A stretch of DNA of 64,000 bases from an uncultured Planctomycetaceae bacterium (GCA_964449435.1 CAYUYR010000004.1:20059-84058), one strand, 5' to 3'; positions 2,553-37,605 are shown, counted from the first letter of the stretch. Numbers and translations are program-made. Notes: generated by a model not told the origin, from the letters alone.

Positions 2553-2833
2553 ATCTGGCCCCAACTAAAAAGGTTAAAGATTAGCAATTTTAGCCGACCC
2601 TACAAATTATCACAATTCGGCCCACAATGCAACCTTTTATAAAATCAAGTTTTTTAACCCTTTTTCTGTTAAGTGTTTAGAAAACTTCCCAAAAAATTGT
2701 TGGATTTTATGAATTTTTCCCTTGATTTTTTAATTACAAATGTTAAAATATGCGTATATTTGATAATCATATAACTTATAAGCCTTTAAAAGACAAGGCT
2801 TTTTTAACATCTTAAGGTACGGTGAATTTAGTT

Positions 2834-3205
2834 ATGTCCGCACAAAAAATCAGTAAGAACGAGCTTTTGCTTATTTTTGAAAAACATCCGGCAAGGGTGG
2901 CTCTGCTTCCTGCCGCCCAGAGGGCGCTGGTGGCGCTGTTCCTCAGCAGCCGAAGTTTCAGAATACTTGCGAAAGCCGCAGATGCAAACGAGGCCGCCGT
3001 CGCAAGAAAACTGAGAAGCATCGCCGGCAGAATAATCAACGCTCATTTTCTAACCGCCCTGTCGCAGGAAAAGTTGTCCGGAAAAAAAATAGAGGTAATC
3101 AGGGACCATTTCGTAAAAGGGCTGAGCATAAAAACAATCGCACAAAAAACCGGACTATCCCGTTACAGAATAACAAAAATTATTAAGCAAATGAGGACAT
3201 TATGA
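2834..3205 (+). CDS. Small helix-turn-helix protein (sigma70 region-4-like C-terminus)
   Basis: GLSIKTIAQKTGLSRYRITKII HTH; ATGA overlap with the next gene. Confidence 0.65.
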   Translation: MSAQKISKNELLLIFEKHPARVALLPAAQRALVALFLSSRSFRILAKAADANEAAVARKLRSIAGRIINAHFLTALSQEKLSGKKIEVIRDHFVKGLSIKTIAQKTGLSRYRITKIIKQMRTL

Positions 3206-3858
3206 TTACTACATTAACCGCAGAAAAAAAATTCGATTGGAATCTGCCCCTGACCGACAAGGCCGCCGATGTGCTGAGAGCCTTCGGCATAACGGTACAG
3301 AGACTCAAAAGCGGCGCGATAACGCATAGCTGCGAAATAAAATTATCCGCAGGCCAAATTGCTTATATCACAGGCCCGTCTGGAAGCGGAAAAAGCGTAC
3401 TGCTGAGAGAGTTTTTCAGCACCTTTGACAACGATAAAAAAATCAACATCGACGATATACCCCTGCCCGACGACAAAACCACCGTCGATTGCATAGAGGG
3501 AAGTTTTCTCGAGACTCTCAGAACATTAAGCAGCGCAGGCCTTACGGATGTTTTCTGCGTCCTTAATTCACCGGCAACTTTGAGCGAAGGACAGAAATAC
3601 CGATACCGAATAGCAAAGGCAATCAGCAGTGATAAGCAGTTTATCTTTGCAGATGAGTTCTGCTCGAATCTCGACAGGGTAACCGCAGCGGTAATCAGCC
3701 ATAACCTGCGTAAATTCGCGTCAAAGACCGGAAAGGCATTTATCCTTGCAAGCTCACACGACGATTTACTGAGCGATTTGCTGCCTGAAGTCATCGTCAT
3801 CAAACATTTAGCAGGCGATGCGGAACTGATTTATAAAACTCTAAGCACTAAACCATAA
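3202..3858 (+). CDS. Stand-alone soluble ABC-type ATPase
   Basis: Walker A GPSGSGKS, signature LSEGQ, Walker B FIFADEF, H-loop SSH; no permease nearby. Confidence 0.85.
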   Translation: MITTLTAEKKFDWNLPLTDKAADVLRAFGITVQRLKSGAITHSCEIKLSAGQIAYITGPSGSGKSVLLREFFSTFDNDKKINIDDIPLPDDKTTVDCIEGSFLETLRTLSSAGLTDVFCVLNSPATLSEGQKYRYRIAKAISSDKQFIFADEFCSNLDRVTAAVISHNLRKFASKTGKAFILASSHDDLLSDLLPEVIVIKHLAGDAELIYKTLSTKP

Positions 3859-3970
3859 ATACTAAACAAATTCAAAATGCTAATTCTCAAATGCTCAAAA
3901 CGGTTTTGAAAATTGATATTTTGGTAATTCGGATTTGTTTAGGATTTAGAAATTAGAATTTAGGATTTTC
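3842..3970. repeat. Heptamer-periodic imperfect inverted repeat (long hairpin)
   Basis: Arms converge on TCAAAAC-G-GTTTTGA; same family as 23801-23940. Confidence 0.75.
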
Positions 3971-3972
3971 TT

Positions 3973-4833
3973 ATGAACTGCACGATAAAAAAATACTTAA
4001 AGATTGTTGAAGGAAATATTGGCGACTATAAGCCTTTAAGCAGATTTCATTACCGCGACTGCAAAACCGGCCCTGTATCAGCTATCTATAAAATTATAGA
4101 TACACATCCAGCTCGTGCCGCGTTATACGGTTGCGGTCGCGCGACTCGTATCGGCTGCGTAGAACGTAAATCGTCATCCAATACGCAGCCGACAGACGTA
4201 ATACGAAACGAGCAGCGCAACCTATCAACGAAAACCGATAATTGTGAACCGGTCGTTGGAATCATCGTTTATTCTATGCCTGCCTGCTCAGTACAGTTGC
4301 GGAACATCGCGACAAAGGGACTGTTCACAAAACTTGGCTCTGCAAACGCAAATATGCAGTTCGTGAACAATAATATCCGCACAATCGCCCGTGTCGTTAT
4401 TGAGCCGCGATACAGAGCTTTGGGCCTTGCTTACGAATTAGTGCAGAAAACAATGCCGATGCTGAATATGCCTTATATCGAGGCTTTAGCGGTAATGGGA
4501 AAGGTCAATCCGTTCTTTGAAAAGGCGGGTATGATGAGATACGAAGCCCGTCAGTCGCCGCGATGTATTCAGCTCACGCAAGCCCTAAGTGCAGTCGGCA
4601 TTGAGCAGTCCGACCTTGCCGATATAGAAAGAACGCACAATATCCTGCGAAGCCTGAATGGAAAACAAAAGGCGTTTATCGAAAAACAGATTACCAATTT
4701 TCTTACAGCTTACGGCAGGAGGGTAAAAAACCTGCCCGACTGTCTAAAGAGAACCGAATTTTTCATCAGCAGATTATCCGACAGACCCGTTTATTACATC
4801 TGGCGAAATGCTGATGTGAAATTGAAAGTATAA
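3973..4833 (+). CDS. GNAT-fold acyltransferase, Mom-like / ABC-ATPase-associated type
   Basis: LSRFHYR N-terminal motif; acyl-CoA-binding motif RTIARVVIEPRYRALGLA; VMGKVNPFFEKAG. Confidence 0.7.
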   Translation: MNCTIKKYLKIVEGNIGDYKPLSRFHYRDCKTGPVSAIYKIIDTHPARAALYGCGRATRIGCVERKSSSNTQPTDVIRNEQRNLSTKTDNCEPVVGIIVYSMPACSVQLRNIATKGLFTKLGSANANMQFVNNNIRTIARVVIEPRYRALGLAYELVQKTMPMLNMPYIEALAVMGKVNPFFEKAGMMRYEARQSPRCIQLTQALSAVGIEQSDLADIERTHNILRSLNGKQKAFIEKQITNFLTAYGRRVKNLPDCLKRTEFFISRLSDRPVYYIWRNADVKLKV

Positions 4834-4838
4834 AAAGA

Positions 4839-4905
4839 GCCACAAAAACACAAAGGCACGAAGAAAATATATATTAAAAACTTTGTGTCTTAGTACCTTA
4901 GTGGC
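4839..4905. repeat. Octamer-periodic inverted repeat directly after the GNAT gene
   Basis: GCCACAAAAACACAAAGGCACGAAG ... CTTTGTGTCTTAGTACCTTAGTGGC. Confidence 0.65.
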
Positions 4906-4947
4906 AATTAATTTTGCTTTTACAAGTTTATAGCGCAGAGAGACTGA

Positions 4948-4977
4948 TAAAAAAAAGGCCGGTTTTAAGACCGGCCT
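4948..4977 (-). terminator. Intrinsic terminator-like hairpin
   Basis: AGGCCGGT-TTTAAG-ACCGGCCT preceded by a plus-strand A-run. Confidence 0.55.
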
Positions 4978-5062
4978 GTCAGTACTCTTATTTTTTATAA
5001 ATTTCTTATCTAACCGCTTATGATTAAAGCAGTTAACGGGATAAAACTTGCAGATACTTAAA

Positions 5063-5127
5063 TATCAGCAAATTGATTTGTTGATACTGAAATGCCATTT
5101 TAATATCAACAAACTATTTTGTTGATA
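5063..5127. promoter_or_regulatory. Two palindromic boxes TATCA(A/G)CAAA-N4-TTTGTTGATA
   Basis: Copies at 5063-5086 and 5104-5127; the second extends to a perfect 13-bp inverted repeat 5101-5130. Confidence 0.55.
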
Positions 5128-5138
5128 TTATAGTATTT

Positions 5139-5274
5139 TCAAAAAACCTTCTTGCCTTCAGCCGTATTCATAAGCTCGGCAAAAACATATAAAGCAGGGC
5201 GACGGAACAAGTTTTGACCAGTCAATACTCTTGGGCGGGAACTTACCATAATGATATTTTACAGGTTTAGCCAT
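5139..5274 (-). pseudogene. Internally deleted Fic-family gene remnant
   Basis: MAKPVKYHYGKFPPKSIDWSKLVP joined out of frame to RRPALYVFAELMNTAEGKKVF*, resembling the two termini of Fic/DOC-family proteins. Confidence 0.65.
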
Positions 5275-5378
5275 ATTATCTTCTCACAATACCTAATGGA
5301 ATAACCGCCATTCAACTATGCCATAAATCTACCCCTTAACAAAATATAAATCAATCTTTTTTATAAGGAGAAATCCCT

Positions 5379-6020
5379 ATGCAAAATACAATTATCAGAA
5401 TACCGCTTGACAGCCTTTTGCCGCATCCGGAAAACCCCAACAAAATGAGCAAGGCAAACTTTGAAAAGCTCAAGAGGCATATAAAAAAATCTCACAATTA
5501 CGAGCCTTTAATCGTCCGCAAACATCCTGAAATCGAAAACCATTTTCAAATCATCAACGGCCATCACCGCGCAGAGGCCCTAAAGCAAATCGGCGAAACA
5601 TTTGCCGACTGTGTAGAATGGGACATCAACGACGATGCCGCAAGGCTGCTTCTTGCTACACTTAACAGGTTAGGCGGAAAAGATGAACTAAGCGCAAAGG
5701 CGGCTCTATACAAAAACCTGTCAGTCAAATTCAGCGTTCAGGAATTGACTAAGCTCCTGCCGGATGACAAACAGACGATTGAAAAGCTGAAAGACATCAC
5801 AAAACCGCCTGCGGACTTTGCCGAAGACCCAAAGGCGTTTTTAAATACATTGGTTTTCTTCCTCGATGACGGCCAGATTGAAACCGTCGAAAACGCACTT
5901 GAAAAGGCATCGCCGCAGAGCCGCGACCGTAAGGGAGCGGTAAGTAAATCCGAAAAAATGGCAAAAGCAATAACTATAATCGCAAACTCATATCTCAAAG
6001 GAGTGAAAAATGAAACGTAA
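5379..6020 (+). CDS. ParB/Srx-like N-terminal domain protein (phage type)
   Basis: LLPHPENPN...EPLIVR...QIINGHHR; AAGGAG RBS. Confidence 0.85.
   Translation: MQNTIIRIPLDSLLPHPENPNKMSKANFEKLKRHIKKSHNYEPLIVRKHPEIENHFQIINGHHRAEALKQIGETFADCVEWDINDDAARLLLATLNRLGGKDELSAKAALYKNLSVKFSVQELTKLLPDDKQTIEKLKDITKPPADFAEDPKAFLNTLVFFLDDGQIETVENALEKASPQSRDRKGAVSKSEKMAKAITIIANSYLKGVKNET
5917..5941 (+). repeat. REP-like hairpin AGAGCCGCGACCGTAAGGGAGCGGT inside the ParB-like CDS
   Basis: 24/25 identical to 29103-29127. Confidence 0.75.
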
Positions 6021-6819
6021 AAAGATTCAATATGTCTCCCTCGAATCGGGAGCGTTCATCTCAGATTTGATTTTCCAAACGATGACAGCCGAGGAAAAAG
6101 GCGTTTACTGCACACTGATTTTCTATCTCTACGAAAACAACGGCAAACTGCCCTTTGACATCGAGGCATTAAAACATCTTTGCAACTGTCCGGATTTTCA
6201 AAAGGTCTGGGAGTTCGTCAAACAAAAATTCATAATCAAAAACGGCAGAATTTTTCACAAAAGAGTCAGCAAAGAATTAGACAGAGCTAAAAAAATGTCG
6301 CAACTCCAATCAGAAAGAGCGGTTAAGGCGGCAGCAAAACGCTGGCAAAACGATGCTCCAAGCATACCCGCAAGCAATGCTCCAAGCATAGCCAAGCGAA
6401 GTAACGTTCAGCGAAGCGAAGTTCAGGTAAGAGAAAATATCGATACGAGGGATGTCTCATCAATAGCCAAAGACTTACTGCCGCCGCTGCCAACTCCGCA
6501 AAGGCCCAGTATCGCTTCGCAGATTCAATGTCTTAAATCTTCGCTTCGTCCCGCCAACGAAACTGACCCGACGAGTATGGTTGTTTTCTATGACAAATTA
6601 GCAGGCACTTTCGGCGGCAGAACGCCTGCCGATTCTGCCGCCCTGAGAAACCTTGTCCGCTGGCTCAAGGACTCCGTCACAGCAGGGATTTTCACCAAGG
6701 ACATTTATCAGAGGGTTCTCGATATGGCCGCGGACTCCAAAAACGGAAACAGCAGAAAACCGATTGCCGTCTTCTTCGCGCAGGTCAAAAAAGATTTAGG
6801 ATACAAAAAGAACGAGTAA
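6010..6819 (+). CDS. DUF1376/YdaU-like phage replication protein
   Basis: TMTAEEKGVYCTLIFYLYENNGKLP...HKRVSKELDRA...AAAKRW; overlaps the ParB stop; internal direct repeats. Confidence 0.65.
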   Translation: MKRKKIQYVSLESGAFISDLIFQTMTAEEKGVYCTLIFYLYENNGKLPFDIEALKHLCNCPDFQKVWEFVKQKFIIKNGRIFHKRVSKELDRAKKMSQLQSERAVKAAAKRWQNDAPSIPASNAPSIAKRSNVQRSEVQVRENIDTRDVSSIAKDLLPPLPTPQRPSIASQIQCLKSSLRPANETDPTSMVVFYDKLAGTFGGRTPADSAALRNLVRWLKDSVTAGIFTKDIYQRVLDMAADSKNGNSRKPIAVFFAQVKKDLGYKKNE

Positions 6820-6828
6820 TATAAAAAC

Positions 6829-6857
6829 TTGAATTATCAGGACAGGTTTGGTACTCT
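6829..6857 (+). promoter_or_regulatory. sigma70-like promoter of greA
   Basis: TTGAAT-17 nt-TACTCT. Confidence 0.45.
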
Positions 6858-6923
6858 ATCGAAAATCAGGCCCAGCGGCGCCGCTGGGATAAAATGTAAA
6901 GTGTTTAATGGAGATATATCAGG

Positions 6924-7406
6924 ATGTCTGACCTTGTGCCAATATCACTAACGGGCTTTGAAAAGCTCAAGGAGGAACTGACCCGGCTCGAGAAAGAAGC
7001 GGCTGAAACGAGAAAAAGAGTTGCTGAAGCTCGTGAACAGGGCGACCTGAGGGAAAACGGCGAATATACTTACGGCCGTCAGCAACTTGGCTTTATCGAA
7101 GGACGGCTCGGTGAATTGAGAGGGCAAATAAACCTGTCAGACAAAGTTGATTGCACGAAAGTTCAATGCGACCGCGCCGTGTTTGGCACCGTAGTAACTT
7201 TGCTGAATCTGAATACTCAGGAGAAGGCAACCTATCAATTGCTGGGCCCTTATGACGCCGATATCGATACAGGAAGTATTTCTATTCACTCGCCTGTAGG
7301 AGACGCTATCCACGGCCTGGCAATCGGAGACAAGGGGGTAATAAACAAACCCAGCGGCGAGTTCCATTTTGAAGTAATTGACATCGCCAAGCCGCAATTT
7401 GAGTAG
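6924..7406 (+). CDS. greA: Transcription elongation factor GreA
   Basis: AREQGDLRENGEY; FGTVVTL; ISIHSPVG. Confidence 0.92.
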   Translation: MSDLVPISLTGFEKLKEELTRLEKEAAETRKRVAEAREQGDLRENGEYTYGRQQLGFIEGRLGELRGQINLSDKVDCTKVQCDRAVFGTVVTLLNLNTQEKATYQLLGPYDADIDTGSISIHSPVGDAIHGLAIGDKGVINKPSGEFHFEVIDIAKPQFE

Positions 7407-7535
7407 GTCATAAGCGGTTTTTTCTTGATTTTTCCTGAAATTCTGATACAATACTTTTTGTATCTGTAACGGATGACGGAGATTCAGCGGGCAGGACACA
7501 ACGGCTTACTTTTTAAATTTAAGCAGGTATAGGTT

Positions 7536-7901
7536 ATGAAGAAGACTTTGCTATTTTCTATGATGTTTGCCGTTCCGGCAGTTGTCAGTTTTTACGCATT
7601 TGCGGCAGCGCCGGCACAAAAACCGAAACTGCTCGAAATTAAAATCGTCGGCCCTGATTCTGTTCCCGAAAACACGCAAAATATTTTCTGCGTCGTCGCT
7701 GTCTATGACGACGGCTCAGAGGTGGAAGTTACCGCAGATGCGGATGTTAAAGTCGTTTCAGATGAATGTAAAGTTTTGAACATCGGCGGAATTGTCGAGA
7801 CATTCGAGCTTAAAAAAGCGGAAAAGCACTTTACCATTTCCGCAAACTACCGCAGCTTTGAGGTTCAAAAGCCGGTCGTCATTTTCGCCAACAAGAAATA
7901 A
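7536..7901 (+). CDS. Secreted protein with a probable Ig-like beta domain
   Basis: Signal peptide MKKTLLF...AFA; beta-rich IVGPDSVPEN...AVYDDGSEVEVT. Confidence 0.65.
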   Translation: MKKTLLFSMMFAVPAVVSFYAFAAAPAQKPKLLEIKIVGPDSVPENTQNIFCVVAVYDDGSEVEVTADADVKVVSDECKVLNIGGIVETFELKKAEKHFTISANYRSFEVQKPVVIFANKK

Positions 7902-7940
7902 ATAATCCGGCTGAAAAATATTCAGCCGCAGACGGTTCTG

Positions 7941-7977
7941 CAAATCTTCAATATTAAATTTCCAATCTTCAATTCTA
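7941..7977 (+). repeat. Degenerate heptamer tandem repeat upstream of an RBS
   Basis: CAAATCT TCAATAT TAAATTT CCAATCT TCAATTC. Confidence 0.5.
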
Positions 7978-7990
7978 AAGGAGACAAACT

Positions 7991-8383
7991 ATGTCATTAA
8001 CCAAAAAGCAATTAGAGATTATCGATGAATTATTTGAATCCGGCGGCGATGAGACTGCCGTCCTTTCAAGGCACGGAATTACTTTCAGCGACTGGCAAAA
8101 GCAGCTCGCCGAAAAGGATTTTGCCGATGAATTGGCCGCAAGAATGGAATCCTCGAAGCGGCAGGGTCGGATTATTTTGTCCAAGTACGCCCCTTACGCC
8201 GCTACGAAGCTGATTCAGTTATGTGAGAGTGAAAATCAGGAGACGGCCCGCAAGGCCGCTTTGGACATCTTGAATTTGCAGACCGGCTCTCCTGTCGCTG
8301 TCGCTCCAGGCTCCGGCGAACCATTGCCGAGCCTCGACCCCGAAACCGCCTCAAAACTATTAGCCGCTTTAGCTGAAAGCTGA
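7991..8383 (+). CDS. Terminase small subunit-like HTH protein
   Basis: N-terminal HTH (LTKKQLEII...SRHGITFSDW), helical ETARKAALDIL segment, 130 aa; AAGGAG RBS. Confidence 0.55.
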   Translation: MSLTKKQLEIIDELFESGGDETAVLSRHGITFSDWQKQLAEKDFADELAARMESSKRQGRIILSKYAPYAATKLIQLCESENQETARKAALDILNLQTGSPVAVAPGSGEPLPSLDPETASKLLAALAES

Positions 8384-8419
8384 TTTTTAGCCTAAAAACG
8401 GCCATTTTCTTAAATTACA

Positions 8420-8443
8420 CATATTTCCTATATAGGAAATATG
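8420..8443. promoter_or_regulatory. Perfect 24-bp palindrome
   Basis: CATATTTCCTATATAGGAAATATG. Confidence 0.6.
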
Positions 8444-8635
8444 CCAAAAATAAGAAAAAAATTCTACAGCAACTAAGCAGAAAACCAAATTTAATTATGA
8501 CCAGTCTGATAAAAAAACGGTTTTGGCATAAACGGCTCCAAAATACGTAAAAATGCTTAATTTCTGTCTTGATTTATACGATAAATAATGTATAATATTT
8601 TCTCCAAATCGTGGTGTTTGTTTGTAAAGTCAGGT

Positions 8636-9373
8636 ATGAGCTTTGTTATGATCCAATCGCCAATCTATATCCATTATCGCATTCAGTGGCAATTTGTTTG
8701 TTCAGGTACACCTGAAAACCTATTTCAAGGGAAAATTTTTCGTCAATTAATGGATAAAATTAACGATGGGACCTCCTTTAATTTTAAAGATTTCTCTGAC
8801 AGAACACCCTCACGCTGCGAAATGGCTAATGCAAGACGTCTTCCAGATGGCATGGATGCTTTCAGTAAATTAGTTTATAACAATGATAAGCTCGCATATA
8901 TAGAAGAATGGGCGGAAATAACCCCTGACGATTTTGAGAAAAATTGCAATAAATTATTGGAAGCATGGTTTAATCTTTTTCCACAAACAGCAATTATAGC
9001 ACAAAGTTCTTGTATCAGGGCATTGGTGCAACCTAACAAGTCCAAAGATTCGAGACAGTTTCTCGGAGACAAAATACTCCATGTGGGAAAAAGTATTAAC
9101 AGTACTTTTAAAAATATGCCTTTTAAAATAGGTTTTGCTTTTGCGTGTGAAAGAAAACAAACGGAGTCTCCGCCGCCGATACCAATTATATTTGACACAA
9201 GTATTAATTCTTGGGCAGATAATAAAAGAGTCTGGATTCAGGTAAGTAGCAATTCACCGCTTTTACCGCCAGTTAATGCAGCTACTTCAGATAGAGGCGC
9301 AAAACCTATTGTCGATATTAAGCAGTTTTTGGAAGAAGAAGTATTAAATCTACTGACCCAATACGATAATTAG
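8636..9373 (+). CDS. Hypothetical protein, first gene of an AT-rich three-gene island
   Basis: Long ORF; start moved to ATG 8636 because TTGATT(8569)..TATAAT(8591) overlaps the earlier ATG. Confidence 0.65.
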   Translation: MSFVMIQSPIYIHYRIQWQFVCSGTPENLFQGKIFRQLMDKINDGTSFNFKDFSDRTPSRCEMANARRLPDGMDAFSKLVYNNDKLAYIEEWAEITPDDFEKNCNKLLEAWFNLFPQTAIIAQSSCIRALVQPNKSKDSRQFLGDKILHVGKSINSTFKNMPFKIGFAFACERKQTESPPPIPIIFDTSINSWADNKRVWIQVSSNSPLLPPVNAATSDRGAKPIVDIKQFLEEEVLNLLTQYDN

Positions 9374-9401
9374 TTAATAAATCTATAACACGGAGAACTA
9401 A

Positions 9402-9770
9402 ATGAATTTAACATATCTTGACAGTCGCACAAATTTAGGGACAGACCTTATCAGTTTACTAGGATTATCGTGCTGGTCTGATACACTAAAAGAATTCGTA
9501 GCCATCTATCCCTCTAATAAACATATTCGCGTAATTATTGGAAATTTGGGTTCTACAATAAGAATGTCGGCACCCAGTTTAAATATAACCGTAGATGGTA
9601 CAACCCAACAAGAAGTTTGGGAGAAATTCCTTAACGTCATTAAAAATCGTGATGACAGCGCCTGGTTGACTTTTGATGTAGGCCCTACAAGAGCAGAGGA
9701 AATTCAGGAAGGATTAGATGCGCCGGAAGATGAAGAATGGTCGGATATGTCTGAAAACTCAGAGGAGTAG
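9402..9770 (+). CDS. Hypothetical protein with a HicB-like segment and acidic tail (putative antitoxin)
   Basis: APSLNITVDGTTQQEVWEKFLNVI; GGAG RBS; directly upstream of a PemK-like gene. Confidence 0.5.
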   Translation: MNLTYLDSRTNLGTDLISLLGLSCWSDTLKEFVAIYPSNKHIRVIIGNLGSTIRMSAPSLNITVDGTTQQEVWEKFLNVIKNRDDSAWLTFDVGPTRAEEIQEGLDAPEDEEWSDMSENSEE

Positions 9771-9772
9771 CA

Positions 9773-10144
9773 ATGCAACCATCTGAATGGATTCCCTTGC
9801 CTGGACATATTATCCGCACAAGTGTGCCTTATACCGACAATCAAGATAGTTCAGATAGATATCCAGTAGTCGTTTCCAGTAAATCCTATAATGAAAAATA
9901 TCCTTATGTCATCGTAGCTTTTACAACTCGTAGTCTAAATATCAAGCACCCCTTCAATTGTGATGTTGAAATATCCGATAAACGCAAAGATTTTAATTTG
10001 ACAGGATTAAGGGAAAGTACCACTGTTCGTTGTTGCAGGTTGCATACAATAAACAAAAATAAAATTTATGCTCATATCGGTTGTGTTCCCGATGATTTGC
10101 TAACGGATATACAACGTTTGGTAGTCCTTAATTTTAAGGATTAA
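9773..10144 (+). CDS. PemK/MazF-family toxin
   Basis: DRYPVVVSSKSYN...VIVAFTT...GLRESTTVRC. Confidence 0.8.
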   Translation: MQPSEWIPLPGHIIRTSVPYTDNQDSSDRYPVVVSSKSYNEKYPYVIVAFTTRSLNIKHPFNCDVEISDKRKDFNLTGLRESTTVRCCRLHTINKNKIYAHIGCVPDDLLTDIQRLVVLNFKD

Positions 10145-10253
10145 ACCAAGCAAAAAAAGGGAATTGGGGCACTCTTAACCTCTCATTACAAGTTCTCTAA
10201 ACCGCCTCGAAAATCCTCGCCGTTTTGGCAGAAAACGGGCAATGTGTGTCCTG

Positions 10254-10274
10254 AATTGTACAAAATGTACAATT
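10254..10274. promoter_or_regulatory. Palindromic TA operator candidate
   Basis: AATTGTACA-AAA-TGTACAATT; TGTACA cores as in yefM-yoeB operators; upstream of a Phd/YefM gene. Confidence 0.55.
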
Positions 10275-10355
10275 TGTAAAAATTGTAATATTTTACTTGA
10301 ACACACCCTGTTTTTATGCGATATTATACATAGTCGGTAATTAAAGGGAAAAACT

Positions 10356-10601
10356 ATGGAAATGGTAAATATAACTGATTTTCGTCAGCACATATCGGAC
10401 ATAACAAACAGGGTAATCTTCGGGGGCGAGAAAATCTGCATCGAACGCAACGGAAAACCCGCCTGCGTCCTCGTAAGCCTTCAGGACAATCAACTGCTCG
10501 AAGCTATAGAAGACAGAATTGACGTCGATGAAGCCCTCAAGGCTCTGAAAAGCAAAAAGTTCGTTTCCTGGTCAAGGGCAAAAAAGAATTTAGGTTTGTG
10601 A
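10356..10601 (+). CDS. Phd/YefM-family antitoxin
   Basis: VNITDFRQHISDITNRV...ICIERNGKPACVLVS. Confidence 0.85.
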   Translation: MEMVNITDFRQHISDITNRVIFGGEKICIERNGKPACVLVSLQDNQLLEAIEDRIDVDEALKALKSKKFVSWSRAKKNLGL

Positions 10602-10605
10602 GCCG

Positions 10606-10875
10606 ATGAAATACCAGATTGTCATCGAACAAAAGGCTCTTGATTTTCTGCAGACCCTGCCGGGCAAGTTCCGGCGTCAGATAGCCTCAAAAATCGACGC
10701 ATTGGCGGTTAATCCTTTCCCCCCAGCTTCTAAAAAGCTCCTGAACACAAATTTTTATCGCATCCGCAGCGGCAATTATAGGATTATTTACTCGGTCAGC
10801 AGGCAGAAAATCACTGTCTTTATTCTTCGCATTGGCGACAGAAAAGATATCTACAAAAAACTGCCTAAGGGCTAA
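10606..10875 (+). CDS. RelE/ParE-family toxin
   Basis: NPFPPASKKL...YRIRSGNYRIIY...RIGDRKDIY. Confidence 0.88.
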   Translation: MKYQIVIEQKALDFLQTLPGKFRRQIASKIDALAVNPFPPASKKLLNTNFYRIRSGNYRIIYSVSRQKITVFILRIGDRKDIYKKLPKG

Positions 10876-11102
10876 TTCATTTCAGAAACGAATATTTCAT
10901 AAAAGCAGGCAATTGGGGCGGACTTTGCCGACAGAAAAACCCAAAAAATCCCATTTTTCTGCAATAAACCGTCGGGTAAAACCGTCTTATGGGGGTGGAA
11001 AGGTATTGCCGGATAAATTAACTAAAAGGTTGTTAAATCCTTATAAGAACAGCGGGCCTTAACAGCTTGACGTTTCAAACATCAGGCGTTAAACTCGGCA
11101 GG

Positions 11103-11705
11103 ATGAAAACATATAGTCTTATTATAATTTTTATTTTGCCGATGGTTCTATTTATGTCTTCCTGTAAAAAAACTGATAACTCTTCTCTTTCAGCAATCGT
11201 CAAACAGGAAATTAACCGATACCCCGCTCAAAGGCTCGTCGATATCTATAAAACTTTCTTTCAGGGCCATCTGGGCCCTGCCCATTTAATCGCCGATTCA
11301 ACCTCCGCCGCCCAACACATCGAAGCAGAGCTTGCCCAGTCAGCCGATTTTGAAGATTACGATTATCAGCCTTTGCCGCCGGACGGAAAATTCGTCCGCG
11401 CAAATCTGAAACTCATAAAAGACGGCAAAGTATCGCTCGAAGATTTCACAGCCGCCTTTGTCAACAGCGCAAAGCCAGTCAGCGGCACCGATATTGAAAA
11501 CTGGAAGGCTCAATGGCCCAAAATCCTCGCTGAAATTGAAAGACAAAAACCCGCTCTGCCTGATTTCCAAAAGGACAGGGATTTCATCGAATCGCTGCTT
11601 GAAAAAAACGAGTATGTCGTCCACCACAGCGATGAATTTATCGAAAAATACAACCCCCATTACCGCGTTATGTCCGCCGAGCAGGTAAAAATCCTAAGCC
11701 GCTAA
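11103..11705 (+). CDS. Hypothetical lipoprotein
   Basis: Signal peptide with lipobox-like MSSC; DIYKTFFQGHLGPAHLI. Confidence 0.7.
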   Translation: MKTYSLIIIFILPMVLFMSSCKKTDNSSLSAIVKQEINRYPAQRLVDIYKTFFQGHLGPAHLIADSTSAAQHIEAELAQSADFEDYDYQPLPPDGKFVRANLKLIKDGKVSLEDFTAAFVNSAKPVSGTDIENWKAQWPKILAEIERQKPALPDFQKDRDFIESLLEKNEYVVHHSDEFIEKYNPHYRVMSAEQVKILSR

Positions 11706-11890
11706 TAATCACCACGTCAGATAGAGAGTATATCCGGCAAAGACGGCGGGGGCGTTTTTATCATCGTTGTAAAAAGTTCCCATCTGACGGCAATTCGCTG
11801 AATATCCTTTCTTGGAATCCATAATTGTTCTGTGAAGATTGATTATCTTTAGGAGGACAACGGAAATGAAAAAGACTTCTCGCTTTTATA

Positions 11891-13372
11891 TCAGTATTTC
11901 CTGCTTCTTGCCGAACTTGAACTGTTGTAATTAACGAAGAAATATCTCAGTGCATCTATCGGGTGGTCGTAAATCCCGTCTTTCAACGGCAATTCCTCAC
12001 AGCCTGCCTGTGGATAATGATAGCACTGCATCGCCTCAATCAATCTGCCGCATCGCGGACTGATAAACAAACTGCTTTGCCCGTCGCCCGAACGCAAAAA
12101 CCTTCTGACAAGCTCAATTCCTTCGAGAATAGAGCTTCTTTTATACCGCAGCTTGACTCCGGCCTGTCTTAACTGGAAAACAGGACTTGTGCCCGTAACG
12201 TCATTAACGCCCGCACCGGCAGGGTCGCAGAAAGTCGCTATTACATTGTCCTCGATAAAAGGCTCTCTGTTCTTAATCTCCTGTGCGTGGCCGTCAATCG
12301 TGATTCTGCTCTTGACATATTCGTCAATAACGCGGACAGTGCCTTTTTCATCGACCTGAATCCAAAGACACACAAACGGATTGACGAATCCGAAATCAAT
12401 CGCCCGATACAAAGGCAGCGACGGATTATACTCAACCTCTTTTATATGAACATCAGGGGCAAACTCCGCAAAGACGACATTTTCGAGCGACGGCCTAAGA
12501 CAAAGCATTTCAGATTCAAACGCCGCCCTGCTGCTTCGCCTCATCTGCGCCAGAACGTCATCAATCTTTAAATACCCGTTCGCTTTTTTTGCCCTGCCGC
12601 GACAATCGTTATTCAAAGGACAACGGCTGCACGAGCGGTCTTTGCAGTTTTCAATCACTTCCCAGACACACCATTTGAACATCGGCACGCCTGCAGACTG
12701 CGCCTTGCCGACAATATCGTGCATTAACCCGAAAGGCTGATGCATTGTACTTAATGTTTCCATCGCGCCGACGATTTCGTCCGTGCTTTTGGTTATGAAC
12801 TTTGCCGCCTCGAAGACCTGCCTGTCGAACAGTTCGACCTCATCGCATCTCAATTTGTGGATATGACTGCCCCGCACGCTCGCCGCAGATTGCGTTAATA
12901 CCTCGACATCGGAGCCGTTCAGAAACCGGCATTTATCCTTGCGGACAGGCCCTGCAAGAAAATCTTCGAAACCGTTGTTCACAAACCCAAGCATATAATC
13001 GTACATTCTTTGCGCCTGTGTTTCGCTGCCCGCAAGAATTCTCGTTTTACAGCCGGGCTTGAAAACACTGTCTAAAAGTGTCGCCGCCGCAGCCAGAAGC
13101 GTTTTGCCGCCGCCGCGGCCCGCCCAGACAACACAATCGCCGCTTTTGCTTTCTCCTGTCGCTTTCGCTCCAGGCTCTGCATAACAGTGCCAAAGATAAT
13201 CGAGCGGACTGTTATGTTCCGGACAGATATTTACATCGCCGATGTCGATGCCGAGAAAAACTTTGAGATAGTTTTTCAAATCGGCTCTCGTCTGCGGCCC
13301 TGTCCTTCTCAGCGTTTCATAAAAATCATTTGCCTTAACGATACGCTCTGTGGATAGACTGGTACTGTTCAT
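11891..13372 (-). CDS. Phage terminase large subunit
   Basis: Walker A GRGGGKT, Walker B LRCDEVE, RNase H-like nuclease RAIDFG...DHPIDALRY. Confidence 0.9.
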   Translation of the reverse strand: MNSTSLSTERIVKANDFYETLRRTGPQTRADLKNYLKVFLGIDIGDVNICPEHNSPLDYLWHCYAEPGAKATGESKSGDCVVWAGRGGGKTLLAAAATLLDSVFKPGCKTRILAGSETQAQRMYDYMLGFVNNGFEDFLAGPVRKDKCRFLNGSDVEVLTQSAASVRGSHIHKLRCDEVELFDRQVFEAAKFITKSTDEIVGAMETLSTMHQPFGLMHDIVGKAQSAGVPMFKWCVWEVIENCKDRSCSRCPLNNDCRGRAKKANGYLKIDDVLAQMRRSSRAAFESEMLCLRPSLENVVFAEFAPDVHIKEVEYNPSLPLYRAIDFGFVNPFVCLWIQVDEKGTVRVIDEYVKSRITIDGHAQEIKNREPFIEDNVIATFCDPAGAGVNDVTGTSPVFQLRQAGVKLRYKRSSILEGIELVRRFLRSGDGQSSLFISPRCGRLIEAMQCYHYPQAGCEELPLKDGIYDHPIDALRYFFVNYNSSSSARSRKY

Positions 13373-13489
13373 TATGAAATCCTCTAAAAAAATTGTAGAA
13401 ATAAAATGTGTAAATTATGGTGAACGGCAGTTCCGAATCAGTCGGAACTCCTCGGTTTTTAAGTCTTAAAAAACCCTTATTTTGTGCGT

Positions 13490-13518
13490 ATTATACCATA
13501 AAACCGTCTAAAAATCAA
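13490..13518 (-). promoter_or_regulatory. sigma70 promoter of the terminase gene
   Basis: Minus strand TTGATT-17 nt-TATAAT with TGn extended -10. Confidence 0.65.
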
Positions 13519-13640: not shown

Positions 13641-14172
13641 TGTCCGGCGGGTCGGGCGGCCGCCCAGCACCTACTTTATTCAGTTTCGGATTTTGGGGAT
13701 TATGTGAATATAATTCTGTGTCTCTTTGGGGACGTATCTTTATGGACTGGTTAAAGTAGGTGCTGGGAGGAAAGTCCGGGCAGGACAGGGCGCGGTGATG
13801 GCTAACTGCCACCGTATTTGAGATTTCAGATAAAGGGAAAGTGCCACAGAAAATACACAGCCCCGCACCTACTTTGTTCAGTAACAAAGGTTTATAAAAA
13901 TCAAATAATTGGAATTGCTGATACAGCTCGATTTAACGTCTCGGACTGGGCAAAGTAGGTGTGGGGTAAAGGTGAAAAGGTGCGGTAAGAGCGCACCGCG
14001 ATTTTGGCGACAGAATCGGCAAGGCAAACCCCACCGCCTGCAAGACCAAGTATGCCGGCATGCTCTGCCCGAGCGCTAATCCGGCGGGTAGGTCGCTTGA
14101 GCCTGTCAGTAATGGCAGGCCTTAGAGAAATGGTCGCTTATTACAGAACCCGGCTTATAGACCCGGCGGACA
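13641..14172 (+). ncRNA. rnpB: RNase P RNA, type A, with extended P3 and P12
   Basis: GAGGAAAGTCC (13767-13777), AGTGCCACAGAAA, GGTGAAAAGGTGCGGTAAGAGCGCACC, ACAGAACCCGGCTTA; P1 TGTCCGGCGGGTC / GACCCGGCGGACA. Confidence 0.96.
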
Positions 14173-14227
14173 AAAAAATTGATTACTTCCTCTTATCTGC
14201 TTTTGTATATAATGGTTTGTCGCCGAG

Positions 14228-36633: not shown

Positions 36634-37605
36634 ATGATAGACCACAGTGAAAAAAAGGTGATAGAGCGGATAATTGCCCTTCGTGAGGATTTTTCAGGTA
36701 AACGCGGCAGGAAGAAATTCGCTGCTTTGCTTGGTATAAGTCCTTCTACATACAGCTATTACGAAAAAGACAGGGTTCCGCCAATTCCGATACTGCTCAA
36801 GATATGCGAAATATGCAATGTCGGTATCGGTTGGCTTTTGACCGGCAAAAATGACGAAAAAGGCGGGAAAAACGACCAGATTTCCCTAAAAATCCGGAAA
36901 CTTATCGAAAAACAATCTGCTTCTTTACAGGCAATATTGGCGTTTTTAGACCTTCTCGAACAGGAAACCTCTCTTGCTCTTGCGGCAAGCCAGGGCAAGC
37001 CTAAAACCTCGCAGCAGGATTCGGCGGGCTGGATACCAGTTCTGGGCAGGACGGCTGCCGGGGTTGCGGGCCTTTGGGAAGAGGTTATCGGCACCGATTC
37101 CAACGTTCTCGAAACGCATCTCGAAGAGCTGGTTCAAAAGCATATTAACGCTTCGATTGTTAATTCTATGGCGACCGTTCTTCTAATCGATTCGCACGCC
37201 AGACCTATTATACAGGCTTTAAGCGATATTCAGGCAAATCTCGTTCAAACCGCCGGCGGAGACGACCAAATTGTTCAATTTGTGGACTGCCCGCAAATAC
37301 GGGAATTATTGCCGGACTGTTTTGCGCTGCAAATTGACGGCGACAGTATGGCTCCGAGGATTAACGACGGCGATATAGTTATAGTAAGCCCTTCGATACC
37401 GGCCGGTTCTACCCTGCCTGCCATTGTCAGAATATCGGGGGCGATAGGCGTAACCTGCAAACTCGTGAGAATAGAAGGCCAGACGGTACATCTTGTTCCG
37501 ATAAATGAAAAATACGATACGAAAATTGTGGAAAGAAAAGACCTTTTATGGGCACTTGCCGTATTATGCCATATAAGGCTGAAAAACGTAGATTCTTTCT
37601 GCTGA
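36634..37605 (+). CDS. XRE-HTH + S24 peptidase repressor (cI/LexA-like)
   Basis: FAALLGISPSTYSYYEKD HTH; IPVLGRTAAG; FALQIDGDSMAP (Ser) and VTCK (Lys). Confidence 0.9.
   Translation: MIDHSEKKVIERIIALREDFSGKRGRKKFAALLGISPSTYSYYEKDRVPPIPILLKICEICNVGIGWLLTGKNDEKGGKNDQISLKIRKLIEKQSASLQAILAFLDLLEQETSLALAASQGKPKTSQQDSAGWIPVLGRTAAGVAGLWEEVIGTDSNVLETHLEELVQKHINASIVNSMATVLLIDSHARPIIQALSDIQANLVQTAGGDDQIVQFVDCPQIRELLPDCFALQIDGDSMAPRINDGDIVIVSPSIPAGSTLPAIVRISGAIGVTCKLVRIEGQTVHLVPINEKYDTKIVERKDLLWALAVLCHIRLKNVDSFC

Follow-up and report, generated by a model that had tools for sequence, protein, structure and literature searches.

What is a set of phage-type genes for DNA modification and packaging doing in a bacterial chromosome, scattered among host genes? 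The question is raised by a stretch of 64,000 nucleotides from an uncultured Planctomycetaceae bacterium (GCA_964449435.1 CAYUYR010000004.1:20059-84058; here G000:C4:20059-84058), which we call the window. An initial annotation had picked out positions 2834-13518 of it as a vertically kept, fragmented phage-derived system with structural genes elsewhere. The distribution of the genes among relatives, their trees, the ratios of nonsynonymous to synonymous substitution rates (dN/dS), the integrase results and the structural genes found outside the window all support that proposal. We conclude with high confidence that these genes belong to a domesticated, vertically inherited, two-locus phage-derived system. 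The region in the window probably forms one half of a phage-derived particle system, the half for regulation, DNA modification and DNA packaging; the system would have been fixed in the chromosome of an early ancestor of the Phycisphaerae and inherited vertically since.

The genome (G000) comprises 1.85 Mb in 35 contigs and is 94% complete; the names attached to homologues place the host in the Sedimentisphaerales, class Phycisphaerae. Relatives were compared in an order set of 61 genomes from 34 genera and eight GTDB families (designated by f numbers) and in a class set of 251 Phycisphaerae genomes at least 90% complete. Coordinates are window positions unless prefixed with C4, C6 or C1, which are contigs of G000. 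The genes on which the argument turns are as follows.

2822-3205, + strand: helix-turn-helix (HTH) protein, sigma-70 region 4 or antiterminator Q-like (weak Pfam, PHROG and NCBIfam matches)
3202-3858, + strand: soluble ABC-type ATPase (PF00005 1e-11, phrog_293 1e-27)
3973-4833, + strand: GNAT-fold acyltransferase-like protein, 286 aa (fold of the AlphaFold2 (AF2) model)
5379-6020, + strand: protein with a ParB N-terminal domain (phrog_498 3e-17, phrog_723 4e-14, ParB_N 1e-5)
6010-6819, + strand: DUF1376 protein, 'primosomal' in PHROGs (PF07120 3e-11)
7991-8383, + strand: TerS-like protein, small terminase subunit (phrog_2538 via orthologues)
11891-13372, - strand: TerL, large terminase subunit with ATPase, RNase H-like nuclease and Cys4 cluster (Terminase_6C 1e-5, phrog_2 4e-19)
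C4:9817 down to 83, - strand: structural operon with SPP1-type portal (PF05133, SPP1_portal 2e-17), scaffold, SU10-type capsid and nine further open reading frames (ORFs)

The HTH, ABC ATPase, GNAT, ParB-like, DUF1376, TerS-like and intact TerL genes, together with the host genes greA and rnpB, lie where the initial annotation had placed them; for the GNAT protein, which it had called Mom-like, the general GNAT fold is what the model shows. The structural genes that it had expected elsewhere are indeed outside the window, on the same contig, and comprise portal, scaffold, capsid and tail hub. SU10_MCP (PF17236) has one match in the genome, at C4:6451-7563 (1e-83; phrog_1328 8e-73), 12.5 kb upstream of the window and about 24 kb from TerL, and the locus as a whole lies about 22 kb from TerL. 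The family is present in single copy in 51 of the 61 order genomes and absent from all 14 control genomes. The operon also encodes connector-sized proteins and a 601-aa protein whose N-terminal domain, modelled with confidence, has the hub fold of gp27, VgrG and Mu gp44 (46 PDB matches with E <= 1e-3); the C-terminal half of the model, with a predicted local distance difference test score (pLDDT) below 50, was left uninterpreted. The chromosome thus carries particle genes of the kinds found in gene transfer agents (GTAs), namely capsid, portal, terminase and tail hub. Positions C4:1-107 and C6:1-107 are overlapping reverse complements, from which it follows that the operon continues onto C6 with one more small membrane protein. 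Its end is about 3.4 kb from dnaA (C6:3817-5118), so that the system is probably close to the origin of replication. The two loci are separated by 12 kb of host genes (rubrerythrin, UbiA, M48 peptidase, phosphoglucomutase, RlmN, HAD hydrolase and GH130).

The structural locus is conserved in order as well as in content. The order of its first four genes is kept in nearly every locus examined, with all eight families represented, and that of the 12-gene operon in f1, f3 and f7; the genes flanking the portal are syntenic within f1. Values of dN/dS in the operon are 0.08-0.22 (portal 0.09, capsid 0.08). The 378-aa gene at C4:2993-4129 departs from this pattern, with 62% identity to the congener G008 and about 30% to G003 and G004, compared with 66-88% for the flanking genes; such hypervariability is typical of receptor-binding proteins in arms races. 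No protease was detected with the head genes. HK97-type portal (PF04860) and capsid (PF05065) genes were considered as members of the system and rejected, both being absent from this genome.

TerL is present in single copy in 58 of the 61 order genomes and in 153 of the 251 class genomes, and the ABC ATPase in single copy in 54 of the 61, so that with the capsid the presence of the core genes in relatives is near-universal and not patchy. TerL identity drops from 96% to 49% with taxonomic distance, and outside the Phycisphaerae strong TerL matches are limited to a few lineages. A tree of 50 TerL sequences is congruent with the hosts: it requires 7 changes of family label, the minimum for eight GTDB families, against a shuffled mean of 28, and every multi-member family forms one group except f3, which encloses the sole f4 sequence. 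The capsid tree follows taxonomy in the same way (8 changes against a shuffled mean of 23.5). In comparisons with G008, dN/dS is 0.08 for the ABC ATPase and for the GNAT protein, 0.12 for ParB, 0.17 for TerS, 0.23 for DUF1376 and 0.095 for TerL (0.05 for TerL against G010). The values for the enzymes (0.08-0.23) are far below 1 and similar to those of host genes (0.10-0.21 for MatE, rubrerythrin and UbiA, with MatE at 0.15 against G008). GC content at third codon positions (GC3) is 0.49-0.57 in the system genes and 0.50 +/- 0.07 in the genome. These observations are indicative of vertical inheritance under purifying selection without autonomous mobility, as in GTAs.

A decaying or cryptic prophage, or a satellite like the phage-inducible chromosomal islands (PICIs) that borrows the capsid of a helper, would explain the phage-like gene content, the patchy or truncated parts (DUF1376 is in 13 of the 61 genomes) and the toxin-antitoxin genes and low-GC cargo inside the region. 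We regard this as extremely improbable, since the core genes are near-universal, single-copy and congruent with taxonomy, with dN/dS of about 0.1, the flanks are syntenic and the composition is host-like. The initial annotation had seen no integrase in the window and had named att sites around a contiguous prophage as a refutation of its proposal. The result is in its favour: host genes separate the modules, and the three tyrosine recombinases of the genome all lie on contigs other than C4 and C6, the search having covered neither serine recombinases nor att repeats. The system is therefore neither contiguous, nor equipped with such an integrase, nor patchy, as an integrated prophage would be, and differs from PICI- and P4-like satellites in having its own capsid and portal and a vertical pattern. 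The true prophage genes of relatives are different ones, with HK97-type portals in 2 of 31 genomes and HK97-type capsids in 6 of 31, a patchiness that marks these families as belonging to ordinary prophages rather than to the system.

A further argument against the prophage or satellite explanation is the existence of a separate, fast-evolving clade of phage-type TerL proteins in which the portal directly follows TerL. It includes loci L125 and L213-L219, from an IMG/VR contig and the Phycisphaerae genomes G457, G484, G544, G591, G619 and G645. A scaffold and a different capsid come next in L125 and G484, G457 and G544 have an ABC-GNAT pair upstream (accompanied in G457 by ParB), and L125 carries a transposase. 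In gene content the members resemble live Mu-like phages or prophages of Phycisphaerae, kin to the ancestor of the tamed system, and they serve as an internal control for the appearance of a real prophage in these hosts. A scan of IMG/VR with the TerL sequence alone gave no match; with a TerL alignment the best matches were 32-34% identical and fell in this separate, truly viral clade. The closest cultured phages by TerL, at no more than 30% identity, were uninformative.

The gene order of the packaging side is also that of phages. In Pseudomonas phage phiK7B1 (nickie/Nickievirus) the order is ParB-ParB-ABC-x-GNAT-x-x-TerL-portal. The ABC ATPase is 34-36% identical to terminase-side genes of Nickievirus, SSU5-like and other phages (36% for phiK7B1), the GNAT-fold protein matches phiK7B1 gp009 with an hhalign probability of 98%, and the TerL nuclease domain is 27% identical to that of the phage block. 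On these sequence comparisons the whole block is taken to be phage-derived.

All core genes of the system are intact in this genome, both terminase subunits included. TerL scores 26 bits against Terminase_6C (cut-off 22.6) and 16.8 bits, below the cut-off of 22, against Terminase_6N. Its Walker A (GRGGGKT) and Walker B (CDEVE) motifs, its three nuclease aspartate motifs (D326, D383, D468/D473) and its Cys4 cluster are invariant in 50 orthologues, which identifies it as a Terminase_6-type enzyme. The TerS-like protein alone gives a weak PHROG match (5e-4), and 12 of 15 orthologues match the TerS family phrog_2538, the best at 7e-12. Its profile matched neither solved TerS structures nor the protein upstream of phiK7B1 TerL. 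In compact operons the gene lies upstream of TerL, at about 130 bp in G051 and G061 and with rpiB intervening in G038; the TerS assignment rests on the PHROG matches across orthologues together with this position.

Upstream of the terminase genes, the HTH gene is the first of the packaging-side operon in five relatives (G008, G027, G032, G038 and G061). All its family matches are weak (E about 1e-5), and it evolves fast (dN/dS 0.46 against G008); its sequence suggests a putative activator. The start of the ABC ATPase gene overlaps the HTH stop (ATGA), and no permease gene lies near it. The two genes form a module of the split type found beside terminases, in which an ABC ATPase without a permease is encoded next to a GNAT-fold protein. 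In five relatives the ABC ATPase match is interrupted near residue 100, and four of these keep one open frame.

The GNAT-fold protein has no Pfam match and 484 homologues, typically 246 aa long. Its AF2 model (pLDDT 84) retrieved in Foldseek the GNAT domains of NAT10 and TmcA at the top, plus many GNATs; the PDB matches are to NAT10 (7mq8, 9aym, 9j3c) and TmcA (2zpa), with low template modelling (TM) scores and E about 1e-3. The extra length in the window stems from an insert at about 4126-4245, which adds 40 disordered residues in frame and is missing from the 246-aa orthologues. Copies of at least 96 nt occur at C6:65376-65469 (89%) and C1:235802-235903 (84%), while shorter pieces are scattered over four further contigs and other parts of C4. 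The insert has the appearance of a dispersed repeat similar to miniature inverted-repeat transposable elements that is tolerated in a disordered loop. In capsid loci of family f6 (L060:10358-11056, L061:7942-8652, L063:10182-10961) the fourth gene of the capsid operon is followed, 1-2 kb downstream, by an ORF with 31-33% identity to the GNAT protein; from this similarity, the modification module or a paralogue of it may sit with the head genes in f6.

ParB and DUF1376 are accessory components, not core ones. The ParB-like protein belongs by its N-terminal domain to the ParB/Srx superfamily, with 25.8 bits against PF02195 (cut-off 26.3) and matches to 16 PHROG ParB families, the best at 3e-17. 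It is found in 39 of the 61 order genomes, mostly in families f1, f3 and f7 and not in f8, and always between GNAT and TerS. DUF1376, some copies of which are truncated, occupies a variable slot after ParB. A large inverted repeat lies 240 nt upstream of the ParB-like gene (5048-5142, no strand; 47-nt arms with nested perfect 13-nt arms, TAATATCAACAAA / TTTGTTGATATTA). The repeat is a candidate operator or ParB site; it is not conserved in G008, the closest relative that has the region. An HTH-S24 (CI/LexA-like) repressor of 323 aa is encoded at 36634-37605; it was rejected as a part of the system, being unlinked to the cluster in the relatives' loci examined, bar one weak match.

The arrangement of these genes in the window is not the original one. 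Distant families of the order, and seven more elsewhere in the class, have a compact, same-strand operon of (HTH)-ABC-GNAT-(ParB)-(TerS)-TerL. The ancestral unit is thus one operon of HTH, ABC ATPase, GNAT, (ParB), TerS and TerL, and the dispersed layout of the window is derived. Where the initial annotation had described a fragmented system, the dispersal of genes among host genes stands, whereas the fragmentation proves to be a secondary departure from a compact operon. The features that now lie among and beside the system genes are listed here.

6924-7406, + strand: greA, host housekeeping gene (GreA_GreB N and C domains)
7536-7901, + strand: 121-aa protein of no family (ORF)
8588-10875, + strand: inserted cargo, a low-GC module followed by Phd/YefM-ParE (PemK 1.5e-12, PhdYeFM 2e-14, ParE 2e-10)
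8588-10144, + strand: the low-GC module, consisting of a 261-aa protein, a 122-aa protein and MazF/PemK (the upstream two match no family)
10356-10875, + strand: the Phd-ParE pair (PhdYeFM, ParE)
11067-11705, + strand: 212-aa protein without family match (ORF)
13490-13518, - strand: sigma-70-like promoter match upstream of TerL (TTGATT-17-TATAAT, extended -10 (TG), 10/12 matches)
13644-14173, + strand: rnpB (RNase P RNA), host gene divergent from TerL (RF00010, 272 bits)

In this genome the operon has been broken up by the insertion of greA, the accessory DUF1376 gene, two toxin-antitoxin modules and a low-GC island, the last two kinds standing between TerS and TerL, and TerL has been inverted next to rnpB. 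GreA is encoded in the genome by this sole copy, which is absent from this position in 20 of 20 relatives' loci, including that of G008; greA and the cargo at 8588-10875 are not parts of the system. The MazF module is a recent arrival by its GC3 (0.28-0.34, against 0.50 +/- 0.07 in the genome), and of the cargo only Phd-ParE recurs in relatives, in G009 (88-95% identity) and G017 (31-43%). A perfect 24-bp palindrome, CATATTTCCTATATAGGAAATATG, is present at 8419-8442, 36 nt past the TerS stop and at the edge of the low-GC island. Orthologues of the 121-aa protein adjoin the TerS-like gene in G008 and G014 and lie about 2.6 kb away in G002, and ORFs 60-65% identical to the 212-aa protein occur in the TerL loci of G002, G019 and G005, 1.6-6.5 kb from TerL. 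Head genes were sought downstream of TerL in relatives; that position holds only host genes (sulfatase, PBP4, GH67 and pentapeptide proteins).

The synteny of the two host genes with the system had been offered as a check on vertical inheritance. For greA it fails, this position being occupied by greA in none of the relatives examined; for rnpB it holds across family f1, where nhmmer places rnpB 0.3-9 kb from TerL in 15 genomes, counting that of the window. The rnpB of the window is 530 nt long against the 367 positions of the Rfam model, and therefore contains sizeable insertions. Both greA and TerL had been credited with promoters of their own. The greA site is a weak match only. The TerL site, a consensus-like match, is the best-scoring one in the region, which contains 26 promoter-like sites against 20.4 +/- 4.9 expected, a total not above chance. 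A decayed Fic gene had been reported near the cluster, but when two Fic proteins were compared by tblastn with the window's first 20 kb no such gene was recovered (best E = 0.45); an intact RhuM-Fic gene lies directly upstream of the window. There are no tRNA genes in the window.

Do the packaging genes still work with the capsid genes? Capsid and TerL are both present in 136 of the 251 class genomes and both absent from 92, with capsid alone in 6 and TerL alone in 17, which gives an odds ratio of 123 in a statistic that ignores phylogeny. Of the 17 genomes with TerL alone, at least 6 have a TerL of another kind, the phage type, with a portal gene immediately after it. One could suppose that the packaging operon alone is a cellular DNA-processing or modification system, with ABC-GNAT-ParB acting beside a TerS/TerL nuclease-translocase, and that its link with the capsid is historical. 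About 10 genomes that have the system-type TerL without a detectable SU10 capsid, among them G054, which is 97% complete, speak for this, as do the distances of 0.3-1 Mb between the loci in complete genomes of f8 and f2 (G032, G038 and G039) and the promoter-like site of TerL itself. The strong co-occurrence across the class stands against it, and lineages without one locus generally lack the other as well (genus g31 is an example); moreover, we know of no terminase that functions without a portal. We judge this explanation highly unlikely.

The same genomes without a capsid match and the same separated loci count against the two-locus particle system that we prefer, and other observations join them. 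The six genomes with a capsid and no TerL do so too, as does the disregard of phylogeny in the co-occurrence statistic. In the TerL tree of the class the phage-type clade is nested among the other sequences, which may reflect a degree of exchange with live phages. Tail tube, tape measure, endolysin and holin were not identified by sequence in the structural locus, where most of the proteins encoded after the capsid match no family. The GNAT fold matches are weak (1e-3) and closest to RNA acetyltransferases. Finally, the sequence was found in one DNA metagenome run, from a microbial mat, and in no RNA runs, and no particle, transcript or packaged DNA has been observed.

With these points weighed, a mechanism can be outlined for the two-locus system. 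The sigma-like HTH protein would turn the operon on in a subpopulation of cells; TerS and TerL would cleave DNA and drive it by way of the portal into capsids made from the second locus. The ABC ATPase and the TmcA/NAT10-like GNAT protein, assisted by ParB where present, would use ATP and acyl-CoA to mark the DNA or a packaging component at packaging, a step proposed because real phages have the same ABC-GNAT block next to their terminase. The DNA would then leave the cell in particles with a short tail tip, as it does with a GTA. Such marking has a parallel in phages, where a ParB protein activates a DNA-base-modifying enzyme, the thymidine dioxygenase 5mYOX, and such enzymes co-occur with terminases (PMC13229309, 2026). 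By this scheme the ABC-GNAT pair may acylate DNA as it is packaged.

How far this amounts to gene transfer is a separate matter. True GTA function, in which random host DNA is delivered to recipient cells, is quite possible, and we put it forward tentatively. The system is GTA-like in each feature that can be tested in sequence, and 'GTA' is here a functional hypothesis about something known from its genes. The fullest version would be an independently evolved, class-wide GTA in which packaging is coupled to ATP-dependent DNA acylation by the ABC ATPase and GNAT protein, loaded by ParB where present, and exported DNA bears a chemical 'self' mark (such as N-acyl cytosine) for recognition by the recipient or protection from restriction; as a whole we consider it decidedly unlikely.

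The particle might instead have been domesticated for a use other than transfer, such as defence against phages (by a decoy or an abortive device that takes over packaging or competes for it), the killing of competitors, or export of DNA for the biofilm matrix. All the evidence for domestication applies equally here; the hypervariable 378-aa structural gene, with its receptor-binding-like pattern, would fit a particle of this kind, as would the toxin-antitoxin genes and MazF module gathered inside the locus. Tailocins, which are killing particles, have no capsid, portal or terminase, whereas all three are conserved in the present system, and no known defence family matched in the locus (PADLOC was not run). 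Conserved TerS and TerL proteins with intact nuclease and ATPase motifs imply real DNA packaging, and we hold a non-transfer use to be unlikely.

Taken together, these results suggest a candidate new GTA-like element. To our knowledge, few independent GTA lineages have been described and none in Planctomycetota, and our literature search found no published description linking Phycisphaerae or Planctomycetes to a GTA or a conserved terminase; 'COG2401' as a term returned nothing relevant. The system is conserved in well over half of the sampled Phycisphaerae genomes and has been retained in a genome of 1.85 Mb. If the proposal is true, this widespread and little-studied class would have in the system a major route of gene exchange or else a novel way of employing a tamed virus. 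The ABC ATPase-GNAT-ParB module stands beside the terminase in many phages; here it is kept under strong purifying selection without a viral arms race, which suggests that it is integral to DNA packaging. The scrambled layout in the window, set beside the compact operon of relatives, shows how much dispersal such a system tolerates while being maintained.

Comparison with known systems places the element more precisely. TmcA and NAT10 (Kre33) are ATP-dependent cytidine N4-acetyltransferases, and the present pair, as modelled, resembles them in that an NTPase would work with a GNAT domain; low TM-scores and E about 1e-3 confine this likeness to the level of the fold. In those enzymes a helicase-type NTPase is fused to the GNAT domain and the substrate is RNA, whereas here the ATPase is separate and of ABC type and the context is DNA packaging. 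The phage 5mYOX system likewise encodes a ParB-fold protein beside a DNA-modifying enzyme, which is however an Fe/2-oxoglutarate dioxygenase and not an ABC-GNAT pair (PMC13229309). In the present system ParB is dispensable in many lineages (present in 39 of the 61 order genomes). The phage blocks of phiK7B1/nickie, the SSU5-like phage-plasmids and Rhizobium RHEph10-like phages have the same genes in the same order, ParB-ABC ATPase-GNAT-TerS-TerL-portal. Theirs run directly into portal and head genes within a mobile 100-kb genome, whereas the present block is chromosomal, headless and vertically inherited, with an HTH gene in front.

Among GTAs, the element shares no head-gene homology with the RcGTA type (Rhodogtaviriformidae): its capsid is of SU10 type and its portal of SPP1 type, with a scaffold, and since this genome lacks capsid and portal genes of HK97 type it is not an RcGTA homologue. 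It differs from described GTAs also in being split between TerL and portal, in its host phylum, Planctomycetota, and in being known here from genes alone; we know of no described GTA with an ABC ATPase-GNAT-(ParB) module in its packaging operon. A dedicated activator of sigma-like or HTH type, comparable to GafA of RcGTA, is plausible here too. With the GTAs and viriforms as a group (RcGTA of Rhodobacter capsulatus, BaGTA, VSH-1, Dd1 and VTA) the system has in common chromosomal, phage-derived head, tail-part and terminase genes inherited vertically across a large clade under purifying selection, the lack of an integrase and of a complete replication module, and a distribution over several loci interleaved with host genes.

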